Origin: an uncultured Verrucomicrobiae bacterium
GTDB lineage: Bacteria > Chlamydiota > Chlamydiia > Chlamydiales > Rhabdochlamydiaceae
Length of the DNA: 64,000 bases
Assembly (NCBI GenBank): GCA_963818965.1
Contig: CAWFUG010000009.1
Span: forward strand, 160,001-224,000
Direction: 5' to 3'
The translations under genes were made by a program, and so were the position numbers. Every line of letters starts with the position of its first letter. Position 1 is the stretch's first letter. The notes under the pieces are model-generated. The model saw only the letters and a list, made by a program, of their open reading frames with translations. It was not told where the DNA came from and made no database searches. Shown here piece by piece: positions 18,807 to 61,000 of the stretch.

Positions 18807-19369
18807 CTATCCGAGGTTTTTTTGAATGACTTCGAAGTCAGACATCTTGGACCAATCGGGAAAGGTCAGTTCCCAGACCCGGTAGATCTTACCTTCTTTG
18901 TATTGGACGATAATGAGGAGTTCGAGTTCCCTTTTCGGCTTGCCTGGCAATTGGGTCGTGATCCACATCCTTCCAGCGACTTTGTCCTCAGACTCTAGGA
19001 AGGTCTCTTCTTGATAGGCGACATGGTATTGGATGGGAGTGGCGTAAATGTCTTGATGCCCTTCCAGAAGCTGTCGGTAGTCCATCGTGTGACCATTAGC
19101 ATAGAGCAAAAAATCGGGATGGTAGAATTCCTCGATTTATACCCCGCGCGCTTGAGGATGGTGCATTTGAGCCGCGTGAAAGCTCCCGCGGTTCGACGAT
19201 CGGAAATGGGGGTTGTATTTCATCAATACTACCCCCATTTCCGATCGTCGAACCCCGGGGCTTTGACGCGCTCAAATGCACCATCCTCAAGCGCGCGGGG
19301 TATAGACGCATTCTTTTGAACCGTCACTTCCTCGAACATCTTTTTTAATTTTTCTATTTTTGAATTCAT
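18807..19369 (-). pseudogene. SnoaL/NTF2-like protein gene interrupted by a 167-bp palindromic element
   Basis: MNSKIEKLKKMFEEVTVQKNAS upstream of the element and IEEFYHPDFLLYANGHTMDY...GKIYRVWELTFPDW downstream; the element brings an in-frame TAG and the halves are out of frame. Confidence 0.75.
19138..19304. mobile_element. TATAC...GTATA palindromic miniature element (family 1), full-length copy A
   Basis: Perfect 35-bp terminal inverted repeat tataccccgcgcgcttgaggatggtgcatttgagc plus a perfect 23-bp inner stem; 167 bp. Confidence 0.92.
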
Positions 19370-19388
19370 TTGAGTGTGCTTGTGTGGA

Positions 19389-21176
19389 TTAATTTTTCTT
19401 CTTGTCGAGCTCTTGCCAGCGGATGTAGAGCTGCTCGATTTGTGTCTCGACGAGGGAGATGGCGGTGCCTACTTCAGAGAGCCGGGTTGGATTTTGTCCC
19501 ACTTCTTCGCTTTCTAAAAGGTGGGTCAATTCTCGCAATTCTGCTTCCCGCTTTTGAATTTTCCCCTCGATTTGATCGTATTCTTTTTTTTCTGCATAGG
19601 AGAGTTTAGGTTTCTCTGAGAGGGAGGCTACGGATCCCTGTTTTTTTTCTGCAGGAGCAGGGGCTGTCTTTTTTACGGAGGCTTGCCATTGTGCGTAGTC
19701 GGCAAAGAGGGCATTTTCAAGGGGGCTAGAGAGGGCTAAAAAGAGGTTGCAGATCCGATCGAGCATGCAGCGGTCGTGGGTGATGAGGACGATGGCGCCG
19801 GGAAATTCTAAAAGGCTGGTCTCTAAGATTTCCAATGTCGGGATATCTAGATCATTTGTCGGCTCATCGAGTAGGAGCAGATCTGCCGGTTGGAGCATTA
19901 AATGAGCGATCTGAATCCGCGCTCTTTCCCCTCCGGAGAGTTTTCCGATCGGTAGATCGAGTTGTTCGGGAGAAAAAAGAAAGCGTCTGCACCAGCCGTT
20001 CACATGGATCGATTGCCCTTGATAGGTGACGAAATCCCCATTGGGACAGAGGGCCTCTCTTAGTGAAAGTGTATCGGGCAGTTGGTTGCGGTGTTGGTCG
20101 AAATAAACGGTTTTTAAAGCATCCGCCCTTTTAATCGTTCCGAGATCGGGAGAGAGTTCATTCGCCAAGAGGCGCAGGAGAGTGGTCTTGCCTGATCCAT
20201 TGGGGCCCATGAGGCCGATGCGCGTGCCTAAAGAGAGGGTGAAGTCGAGTCCTTGGAATAGGAGTTTTCCTTCCAGTTGCTTTTGGAGGTTTTTCGCGAC
20301 AAGGAGCTTGCGCGTTTCTCGTTCGCTACTTGCGAAATGGATCGCTGCACGCTGTTTTTGGTTCCTCTTGCGCACATCGGCGAGATCATCGAGCAGCTCG
20401 TGAGCTTGATCGATCCGGGCTACAGATTTGCTGGTCCTGGCTTTGGGATTGGAACGGAGCCATTCCGTTTCTCTGCGCGCCTTGGAAGCTAAAGAGCGCT
20501 CTTGCTGCAATTGGCCTTGGAGGAACGACTCCTTTTTTTCGAGAAAATTTTCATAAGAGCCATCGATGGCAAAGAGTCCTTTGGGGTAGGCGGGGGAGAT
20601 CTCGATGATGCGATTCGTCGTTTCCTGCAAAAAATACCGGTCATGGCTGACGAGCAAATAGGTAGGGGCTTCTTGTTTCAAAAACTTTTCTAAAAAGAGG
20701 ATCCCCTCTAGATCTAAATGGTTCGTCGGTTCGTCCAGGAGCAAGAGATCGGGCTCTAAAAGCATCTCTTTGGCGAGCATGAGTCTTTTTTTCCACCCTC
20801 CAGAGAGATGGGAGCTCACCCTCTCTTTGCCTGTAAATCCGAGTTTGCTCAGCCAAATTTTGGCCTGCTGCTCTTTTTCATAATCGGCCAGTTCTGAAGT
20901 TTTCGGGAAAGCGTTGAGCAGAACCTGCATCGGGGACTCTTCTGAAAATTCGCAGACCTGGGGGAGGTATCCGATTTTCAGGCCACGTCGGGGGGATAAT
21001 TGGCCCGCATCTGCACTCTCAAGTCCTGCTAAAATTTTTAAGAATGTCGATTTACCTGAGCCATTTTCTCCAATCAGGCCGATCTGATCCTGAGAGAAAA
21101 CACTGATGGAGAGATCTGTAAAAAGTCTTTTGGTTCCAAAGGACTTGGAGACCGATTCTGCGTTGTATAAGAGCAT
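19389..21176 (-). CDS. uup: ABC-F family ATPase (Uup-like)
   Basis: Two ABC domains (GENGSGKST, LSGGW, LLDEPTNHLD; GPNGSGKTT, LSGGE, DEPTNDLD), no TM segments, C-terminal KLSY coiled coil; start at MLLYNAE. Confidence 0.85.
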   Translation of the reverse strand: MLLYNAESVSKSFGTKRLFTDLSISVFSQDQIGLIGENGSGKSTFLKILAGLESADAGQLSPRRGLKIGYLPQVCEFSEESPMQVLLNAFPKTSELADYEKEQQAKIWLSKLGFTGKERVSSHLSGGWKKRLMLAKEMLLEPDLLLLDEPTNHLDLEGILFLEKFLKQEAPTYLLVSHDRYFLQETTNRIIEISPAYPKGLFAIDGSYENFLEKKESFLQGQLQQERSLASKARRETEWLRSNPKARTSKSVARIDQAHELLDDLADVRKRNQKQRAAIHFASSERETRKLLVAKNLQKQLEGKLLFQGLDFTLSLGTRIGLMGPNGSGKTTLLRLLANELSPDLGTIKRADALKTVYFDQHRNQLPDTLSLREALCPNGDFVTYQGQSIHVNGWCRRFLFSPEQLDLPIGKLSGGERARIQIAHLMLQPADLLLLDEPTNDLDIPTLEILETSLLEFPGAIVLITHDRCMLDRICNLFLALSSPLENALFADYAQWQASVKKTAPAPAEKKQGSVASLSEKPKLSYAEKKEYDQIEGKIQKREAELRELTHLLESEEVGQNPTRLSEVGTAISLVETQIEQLYIRWQELDKKKN

Positions 21177-59896: not shown

Positions 59897-59985
59897 AATC
59901 TGTCTACAATCTCGGTCGTTTTGAACTGGCACTAAAAATTAGAAGCGGATAATTTTGTCCATTTGAACGTCAACCGCGGTCTGCT

Positions 59986-61000
59986 ATGCTCTTATTCTTC
60001 CTTCGACTGTTCCTATTGTTGCTCACTCCTTCTTTTTTTCTCTATTCGCTCGATGTTCTTAATTATGACTTGCATGTTTTTTCTGTGCCGGGAAAGAGCG
60101 AACGGGTGATGCTCTGTTTCCATGGCTATGGAGGTAATTACGAGATTGCCTTGTCGCTTAAAAATCTAAAAACCATAGACGCTACTCTTGTGAGCTTCAA
60201 CTTTCCTGATTATGACATTGAGCAAAGAGGTGAGTACGATTATCGCAAGATGACATTTGGCACGATCGATGAGCTTTTGCCAGCTCTGCACGTCATGAAG
60301 CAGATCGTGCTGGATGGGGGAAGAAAAAGAGATCGATCTGTATGGATTTTCTGCAGGGGGCGGCGTTTTGATCAACGTACTTGGAGTGCTCAATACTTCC
60401 ACTTATGATGCTAGGCTTGAGGCAATGGGGATTGGAGCGGTGGAAAAAGAGAAGCTTCTCGCTGCAATTCAGAGGGGAATGGTGATTTTGGATACGCCTC
60501 TTATACTGCGCCCGGTCAGGAATTGCGAATTTGAGCCTTTGATCAGCTCCCGCGATTCCACGATCGAAAAGGGGGCCAGTATTGAGGAAATACAGGCCCC
60601 CTTTTCGATCGTGGAATCCCGGGGCTTTGACGCGCTCAAATTCACAATTCCTGACCGGGCGCAGTATAAATCGATCGAAGAGATCATTGCCTGTAGAAGC
60701 TCGACGGGTGAATTGGAGTGGTTGGCGAAAAATTATCGGGACAATCACTTCAGACCGATTGACTCGCTTAGATTGCTCCAGGGATTGTCTTTGGATGTTT
60801 TGTTGTATTTTCAGGAGGGAGATGAAATTCTCTCGAATCGAGATGATGACCTGTATATAGAGAGGTTGCGAGAGACTCAGCAAAAAATCGCAGTGATCAG
60901 GGGCAGTGAAGGGGGACATCAGTCTGCTCACCTGCCACTTTGGCAATTTTATGCGCAAAAAATGGAGGGAGAAGATGTTGGCACAACAGTATTGGAATGA
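59986..61000 (+). CDS. Secreted alpha/beta hydrolase, +1 frameshift in G5 run at 60316-60320 and 55-aa element insertion
   Basis: CFHGYGG in the first ORF; IDLYGFSAGGG, D..L and GGH in the second ORF; frames join if one G is removed. Confidence 0.7.
60502..60668. mobile_element. Family 1 palindromic element, full-length copy B, in frame
   Basis: 34/35 terminal inverted repeat tatactgcgcccggtcaggaattgcgaatttgagc, perfect 24-bp inner stem, 167 bp; removal with one TA restores LDTPLKSIEE. Confidence 0.93.

Follow-up and report, generated by a model that had tools for sequence, protein, structure and literature searches.

A TA-flanked palindromic element family of chlamydiae with in-frame copies in genes of a Rhabdochlamydiaceae genome

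Results

A palindromic family in the window and in the genome

The window, i.e., the whole stretch of 64,000 nucleotides analysed here (positions 160,001 to 224,000 of contig CAWFUG010000009.1, called C9, in assembly GCA_963818965.1), belongs to the genome of an uncultured member of the Rhabdochlamydiaceae, called G000, and carries five copies of a palindromic DNA element with TATAC...GTATA ends, which lie inside or close to protein-coding genes (Table 1). The search with an nhmmer profile made from 22 full copies showed exactly five family loci on C9 within 160001-224000. All five copies named in the initial annotation were present, and that at 41123 was indeed degenerate. The core which the copies had been said to share was complete in both 167-nt copies, but the 95-nt copy has only a variant of it, and the 47-nt copy, which equals the left 13 plus the right 34 nt of the copy at 19138, retains just gcgctcaaat. 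The degenerate copy lies 11 nt downstream of the stop codon of an EamA-family gene (41226-42101, minus strand).

Table 1. Copies of the element, two of the host genes and a second palindromic family in the window
Feature	Position in the window	Strand	Context
Full 167-nt element, arm type A (TATACCCCGCGCGC...)	19138-19304	+	Interrupts a small NTF2-like gene
95-nt short form, arm type C (TAATACCAATCC..., TAATACC...)	29279-29373	+	Between an HlyD-family gene and an ABC ATPase gene
47-nt internal-deletion form of arm type A	32779-32825	+	In frame in an ABC-2 permease gene
Degenerate copy, type C left arm, decayed right arm	41123-41215	.	Intergenic
Full 167-nt element, arm type B (TATACTGCGCCCGG...)	60502-60668	+	In frame in a hydrolase-like gene
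ABC-2 family permease gene, host of the 32779 copy	32148-33476	+	Operon of HlyD, ABC ATPase, two permeases and OEP
Hydrolase-like gene with GFSAG motif, host of the 60502 copy	60055-61000	+	Orthologues of 280-298 aa
Second palindromic family	736-798, 7099-7134, 11043-11128, 17166-17244, 21204-21281		

The copies were not confined to the window. The same profile found 121 family loci in the 2.24 Mb and 12 contigs of G000, and blastn-short gave a genome-wide count of 122, both far beyond chance. These loci were dispersed over ten of the twelve contigs, with element sizes of 47-170 nt. The TATAC...GTATA (or TAATAC) ends were intact in 57 loci, of which 19 were 167 nt long, 10 were 47 nt and 7 were 170 nt, the others measuring 49-173 nt. 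Copies in G000 were 93-99% identical, and this identity together with the copy number indicates recent activity. The element is shorter than about 300 bp, non-coding, multi-copy and dispersed and has terminal inverted repeats (TIRs), as expected of MITEs (miniature transposable elements with inverted repeats) in general.

Structure of the element

A full copy is 163-170 nt long and forms a single long imperfect hairpin. In the copies at 19138 and 60502 the outer arms are 35-36 nt and 97-100% complementary, and the inner hairpin has 35-nt arms that are 94% complementary. The alignment of full copies showed a layered organization, in which the outermost layer consists of the invariant TATAC...GTATA tips and the next of an arm of about 25 nt, which is specific to the subfamily and always matched by its complement on the opposite side; at least eight arm types occur in G000. 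Inside the arms lies a conserved ATTTGAGC/ATTTGGAC box, followed by a conserved asymmetric core, which reads ..GAAAGCTCCCGCGG on the left and CCCCGGGGCTTTG.. on the right (in the aligned full copies, ..GYGAAAGCTCCCGCGG and CCCCGGGGCTTTGRCGC). Because the core is asymmetric, the element has an orientation. Inward of the core come TTCGACGATCG and then a variable inner stem and loop, the inner stem being flanked by CGATCG. The inner segments were found in both orientations relative to the core, and core variants are shuffled among arm types, which indicates that copies recombine. The ten 47-nt copies represent at least three arm variants, which are also present among the long copies.

Compensatory double changes were found at 46 of 71 predicted pairs in an alignment of 26 copies from 7 genomes. 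The core in this alignment retains mismatches, including a G-U at one column pair in 21 of the 26 sequences. The predicted RNA folding energy of the 60502 copy was about -130 kcal/mol. Judging from the paired changes, the hairpin is kept through evolution while the arms vary.

The motif TTATACCGAAATAATACC is found at window 29265-29282, directly before the copy at 29279. The arms of the subfamilies in genomes G211 and G100 start with TATACCGAAA, and the motif at 29265-29282 may be the remnant tip of another copy.

Target site and insertions into genes

The 60502 copy adds 55 residues in frame to a host protein of about 285 residues with a GFSAG motif. Seven orthologues were found among 25 relatives, and all seven were without exactly these 55 residues; in each, the stretches matching host residues 5-63 and 119-216 follow one another in the DNA with no gap. 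In the orthologue of G014 the empty site reads CCT CTT AAA TCT, and the filled site reads CCT CT[T A]TA CTG ... CAG TA[T A]AA TCG, so that TA stands twice in the filled site versus once in the empty one (CTTAAA versus CT[TA]-element-[TA]AA). The 47-nt copy adds 15 residues, YPARSNAPSSSARGI, in frame to the ABC-2 permease; this segment was missing in 11 of 11 orthologues, with a gap of exactly 15 residues in nine of them. The initial annotation had proposed that removal of the element plus one TA would restore the protein (LDTPL|KSIEE and ADL|KTQN), and the orthologues of both hosts, 7/7 and 11/11, do join at these points; none keeps the peptide where the palindrome is lacking. The net insert equals the element length minus 2, so that a 167-nt unit adds 165 nt, and it was exactly 55 codons in the 60502 host and in AroA (see below). 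Tandem copies share exactly one TA (GGGGTATATACCC at C11:419427), as do 5 of 18 copies in genome G032, which abut another copy, and this sharing points to TA as the target. The proposed TA duplication at the ends thus agrees with the empty site and with the exact 3n net inserts.

Three copies had been described as read through in genes. Those at 32779 and 60502 are true in-frame insertions, but the copy at 29279 is read through only by an extension of the open reading frame (ORF) upstream of the probable start of the ABC ATPase. In this ORF the Walker A motif is at residue ~122, and the true N-terminus seems to be MVEIKGLSKRF, at residue 87. The first TAA of the same copy serves as stop codon for the HlyD-family gene upstream (28424-29281). 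The copy at 19138 splits a minus-strand NTF2-like gene, with the N-terminal 21-22 codons at 19305-19369 and the remainder at 18807-19136. The orthologue in G025 is continuous, M..KEMFHEMVLKKNAS-L-IPHYYDEDFLLY (...KKNAS-L-IPHYYDEDF...), whereas MNSKIEKLKKMFEEVTVQKNA(S) and IEEFYHPDFLLY stand on the two sides of the copy in different frames; the copy has stops in the entering frame of the gene and is not read through. The N-terminal part of the 60502 host (~60055-60321) is in a different frame from 60314-61000. The frameshift falls in a G5/A5 run (window 60315-60330) about 180 nt upstream of the copy, where the orthologues read through, and reflects either an assembly error or a pseudogene. Among the public sequencing reads, 12 runs contained at most 0.24 of the sampled words from 59900-61300; the four runs compared with this region consisted entirely of contigs with a depth of about 2, none of which spans the element, and no joints were seen.

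Outside the window, aroA of G000 carries a 167-nt copy as a clean insert of 55 residues. Residues 15-216 and 221-421 of the E. coli EPSPS align on either side of residues 230-288 of the G000 AroA, and the closest orthologue (G015, 63-72% identity) is continuous, ...GVEVEIKENGNYF..., compared with ...GVKV[55 residues]IAKENESYF... in G000. The AlphaFold model, based on an alignment of 21 sequences, kept the EPSPS fold (mean pLDDT 85.9, pTM 0.85) and placed the insert, residues 211-261, in a low-confidence loop between two strands, which suggests that the fold would tolerate the insert as a loop. Elements would thus add new peptide segments relative to orthologues, as had been proposed, with 55 residues in the 60502 host and AroA and 15 in the ABC-2 permease. 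MenC has about 64 extra residues after its conserved PLP(S/G)F motif, where the fit of the insert is approximate only, and in the SulP host the PDB and Pfam alignments end at the insert. Fifteen of the 57 intact copies lie in ORFs that continue for 40 codons or more on each side of the copy. The hosts among these fifteen include AroA, MenC, SulP, a leucine-rich repeat protein, a Q-salvage protein, a collagen-like protein and several unknowns, and one of the fifteen copies, 87 nt long, is probably located before the true start of a glycosyltransferase. Both orientations of the element occur within genes. By crude gene calls, 19 of the 57 intact copies were inside ORFs, while ORFs make up 89% of G000. 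With 15-19 of 57 copies genic, genes are strongly under-hit, as expected if most genic insertions were lost through purifying selection. By the same crude calls, 13 of the 38 intergenic intact copies lay within 30 nt of a gene 3' end versus 7 near a 5' end.

The copies of G000 are unusually compatible with translation. In 34 full copies a mean of 2.41 of the 6 frames was stop-free, as compared to 0.53 in shuffled sequences and 1.26 in random genomic 167-mers. The open frames were nearly all at offsets 1 and 2 from the TA (41 and 33, versus 8 at offset 0). The length was 3n+2 in 38 of the 57 intact copies, and the active subfamilies, with 3n+2 lengths of 167, 47 and 170, were stop-free in two to four of the six frames. 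The comparison set consisted of the 80 top-scoring copies from eight other genomes with 500-nt flanks, of which 74 could be delimited. No frame was open in 18 of 18 copies of G032, where the 164-nt copies have stops in all frames, and the copies of G118, G211, G100 and G122 had 0 or 1 open frame. Only 4 of the 74 copies (G146 one, G158 one and G047 two) lay in an ORF with 40 or more open codons on each side. Most chlamydial genomes have intergenic copies with hardly a frame free of stops, versus stop-free and genic copies in G000; the in-frame habit therefore belongs to particular subfamilies and not to the whole family. A 3n+2 length as a rule for the whole family was ruled out, since 164 nt was the commonest length elsewhere (23 of the 37 copies delimited among the loci listed in the scan described below), and subfamilies of 163 and 165 nt dominate some genomes.

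Distribution among chlamydiae

A blast-type search with the 60502 copy matched 12 of 40 relatives, through the core only, and the matched loci had the same architecture with other arms. A covariance model built on the 26-copy alignment matched in 52 of 150 further genomes sampled from the order, belonging to many families and to 42 of 111 genera. In a phylum-wide draw 46 of 150 genomes were positive, with 0 of 23 in one genus whose genomes are 1.0-1.2 Mb. The scan of 185,579 species genomes for an exact pattern of two motifs gave at least 118 loci. Among the 80 matches listed, most were metagenome-assembled genomes (MAGs) titled Chlamydiae, Parachlamydiaceae, Waddliaceae, Rhabdochlamydia, Simkaniaceae or Protochlamydia, and the others carried the submitters' labels, as deposited, of uncultured bacterium, Verrucomicrobiae, Acidobacteriota or archaeon. 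The ends could be delimited in 37 of the at least 118 loci; 36 of these begin with TATAC, and 25 different arm starts occur. The copy number varies even within one genus, in which the search with the 60502 copy gave 2 matches in G001 versus 38 in G000. All 16 arm matches in G146, which is 99% complete, were identical. The plasmid and phage collections gave no match to the family.

Other features of the window

An RHS-repeat ORF of 1690 residues (window 35929-41001, minus strand) adjoins the degenerate copy at 41123. An inverted repeat with 45-nt arms (82% complementary) at 18674-18769, about 370 nt from the copy at 19138, is unrelated to the family. A second and unrelated palindromic family of hairpins of about 80 nt (..CACCACAGAGA..GGAAACCACAGAGAG..) is found apparently in gaps between ORFs (Table 1), and its motif also flanks an IS110-like element at about 50.5 kb of contig C2 in G000 and occurs in a genome of another family (L112 of G032). 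A small AT-rich inverted repeat (..ATGATAGGAATGATGA..) is common to 12613-12691 and 35011-35038. The nrdB gene for the ribonucleotide reductase small chain is split into two overlapping ORFs (5475-6567 and 6531-6606), with a Pfam match to profile positions 82-281 only; the split may be a homopolymer assembly error. Directly upstream of nrdB, between nrdA and nrdB, is a perfect 32-nt inverted repeat.

Discussion

Our results delimit a new order-wide family with TA duplication, and the elements are probably MITEs, i.e., non-autonomous fold-back mobile DNA elements. They insert at a TA dinucleotide, which then stands on both sides, and would be moved by an enzyme supplied in trans. The 3n+2 length together with stop-free frames may have made insertions into coding TA sites not always lethal, and the tolerated genic insertions may have been retained as protein loops of 15 or 55 residues. 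The short forms (47 and 73-97 nt) probably arose by deletion between short direct repeats within the hairpin.

The initial annotation had suggested a chlamydial element not yet described, and neither Rfam nor the literature provided a match. Rfam gave no match at the gathering score in the whole window, only sub-threshold miRNA-like hairpin matches at 60450-60720, and no description of such elements in chlamydiae was found in the full-text literature searched; the repeats counted in the Waddlia genome paper are only those above 200 bp (PMC2878342). The closest known case is the Rickettsia palindromic elements (RPEs), which are likened here by their described properties and not by sequence. RPEs are described as palindromic, multi-copy and in many cases in frame in unrelated genes, including those of essential enzymes, where they are tolerated, and the accounts cited give no known transposase (PMC10969869, PMC3733652). 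Both families, RPEs as these accounts describe them, consist of palindromes of about 100-170 bp, which are non-coding when alone, multi-copy and in many cases found in frame in unrelated genes of an obligate intracellular bacterium. In G000, AroA, the ABC-2 permease and the hydrolase-like gene each carry such an in-frame palindrome and have empty sites in orthologues, and the in-frame colonisation of genes in G000 thus repeats a known kind of phenomenon. Unlike RPEs as there described, the chlamydial family belongs to a different phylum, its TA duplication is shown by empty sites, it extends over many genera and families, its core being conserved and its arms variable, and it is intergenic and stop-rich in most lineages, the in-frame habit being mainly that of G000. 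The QMITEs of Coxiella burnetii are also MITEs of an intracellular bacterium and have been discussed for effects on protein and small-RNA evolution (PMC5896051); the likeness is by the description given there only, and the phylum is different.

Small MITEs that duplicate TA are represented in other bacteria by Correia/NEMIS, ERIC and RUP, which have TIRs, form hairpins and lie mostly between genes near gene ends. The chlamydial elements are similar in size, TIRs, TA duplication, hairpin and mostly intergenic position near gene ends. The Correia tip is TATAG(C/T)GGATTA, whereas the chlamydial tips are TATAC, the whole element is one hairpin and the most conserved part is internal. They also differ from Correia/NEMIS, ERIC and RUP in that Rfam scans gave no match and an IS630-type partner was not found.

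Several observations weigh against a MITE family of this kind. The sequence alone cannot tell a true TA duplication from a 165-nt unit inserted beside a TA, and that the inserts are translated within host proteins is a reading of the DNA. Homopolymer frameshifts in the assembly make single-base length differences between copies uncertain. Conservation lies inside the element, the tips having nothing but TATAC in common, which is unusual for MITEs derived from insertion sequences (ISs). An autonomous partner was not found: as had been stated for the window, no cognate transposase was there, since its 46 ORFs contain no transposase domain, and the G000 assembly, which is 88% complete, has 0 DDE_3 (IS630-type), 0 Y1_Tnp (PF01797) and 0 DDE_Tnp_1_2 (PF13586) genes. 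Neither DDE_3 nor Y1_Tnp was present in 13 of 53 element-bearing genomes. In the complete G023 and in G146 every arm belongs to a MITE pair or a short form or stands solo, and no pair of arms at IS-like spacing surrounds a transposase in G000, G023 or G146. As parents in G000, the IS4-like element (1.2 kb, 3 copies) and the IS110-like element (1.7 kb, 2 copies) were rejected for their unrelated ends, and the one IS5-like gene (C9:267355) lacks ends like those of the element.

Other candidates were also rejected. The half-element pairs 0.4-2.5 kb apart (C1:65973/66485 and C12:91485/94061) enclose ordinary genes or no transposase, and the solo arms of G023, considered as IS ends, are 37-nt mini-forms. 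The region C4:10250-12619, considered as an autonomous element, is an inverted duplication of toxin-antitoxin-type genes and probably an assembly artefact. Contig C4 (22.2 kb) is 99.5% self-complementary over 21.6 kb, both halves match the last 8 kb of C12, and the contig is probably a fold-back artefact of assembly; it carries HigA-like and Fic/Doc-like genes beside a truncated element.

An ordinary MITE derived from an IS630/Tc1-mariner element, with its parent in the unassembled 12% of G000 or on another replicon, would explain the TA target and its duplication, and the initial annotation had pointed to this link. DDE_3 was somewhat commoner in element-bearing genomes (22 of 53 versus 23 of 98 others), and G146, whose recent copies are identical, contains a single intact IS630-like gene with TA and a 106-nt TIR starting GTACC on its flanks. 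However, G000 has no DDE_3 gene, and 31 of the 53 element-bearing genomes have none either. The search for an IS630/mariner transposase with TAC...GTA ends was likewise negative among those inspected: the IS630-like TIRs of G030 and G146 have no more than TAC(C) in common with the tips and none has the core, and the single IS630-like and IS605-like elements of G146 share neither the ends nor the core of the element. The plasmid and phage collections also gave no match to the family. The link was not supported by the genomes inspected, and we consider such an origin rather unlikely.

A REPIN/RAYT-like system, in which a HUH Y1 transposase moves a single-stranded hairpin after recognising its imperfect core and inserts it 3' of TA/TATA with no true duplication, the element persisting as a vertical commensal, is less probable still. 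The chlamydial elements resemble REPINs with RAYT as hairpin doublets with imperfect conserved stems, vertical persistence, lineage-specific families and no linked multi-copy IS. In favour of this explanation, the element is throughout a single hairpin, whose core contains a bulge and conserved mismatches, it has persisted throughout the order, the arms being specific to lineages, and no IS with the same ends was found. Y1_Tnp was somewhat commoner in element-bearing genomes (33 of 53 versus 38 of 97 others, odds ratio 2.6), but the odds ratios for the two transposase families, about 2.3-2.6, take no account of relatedness and genome size and are therefore read as non-specific. A Y1_Tnp gene is missing in G000 despite its 121 loci and in 20 of the 53 element-bearing genomes, including several with a completeness of 97-100%. 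The Y1 genes inspected were ordinary IS200/IS605-type and not flanked by the element; at one locus of G032, two element fragments lie within 1 kb of a broken Y1 gene. The tips are TATAC and not the GTAG/CGTC heads given for REP sequences in the account cited (PMC3733652). The element also has TA on both sides, a symmetry better explained by a staggered cut, and has copies inside genes.

It is very unlikely that the cell selects for the hairpin mainly because of its function as an RNA or DNA structure (a terminator, a signal for mRNA stability or an RNase III site), with mobility secondary: the strong covariation, the low predicted folding energy, the G-U pairs among the conserved imperfections in the orientation defined by the core (21 of 26 at one column pair) and the excess of intergenic copies near 3' ends would agree with it, but palindromic DNA gives the same covariation with no RNA role, no Rfam family matched, copies lie in both orientations inside genes, within ORFs and interrupting genes, and the family is patchy among genera (42 of 111) with a copy number that differs within one genus.

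A bolder reading is possible but doubtful. The element would then be an old hairpin "genome commensal" of environmental chlamydiae and no decayed IS, inherited largely vertically, with an asymmetric core recognised by a single-copy host enzyme of neither IS630 nor Y1 type, which would cut a fixed distance away at the TAC tips and paste into TA, and it would, with its 3n+2 length and two to four stop-free frames, be translation-neutral in this lineage. If this were true, the 89% coding part of a compact genome would be open to the element, and identical disordered 55-residue loops would be seeded in essential enzymes, such as AroA and MenC.

For chlamydial MAGs the elements are of practical use as a marker and at the same time a risk in assembly. 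About one third of the genomes sampled from the order have the element, and its conserved core and lack of a visible transposase make it a handle on an unknown mobilising enzyme. The "protein-coding palindrome" phenomenon of Rickettsia is repeated here in a second, unrelated phylum of intracellular bacteria, and clean empty sites and a defined TA target go beyond the Rickettsia case. The sister lineages, with stop-rich and intergenic copies, and G000, with stop-free and genic copies of in-frame length, form a natural contrast, through which one could ask whether selfish DNA becomes translatable as an adaptation to compact genomes.

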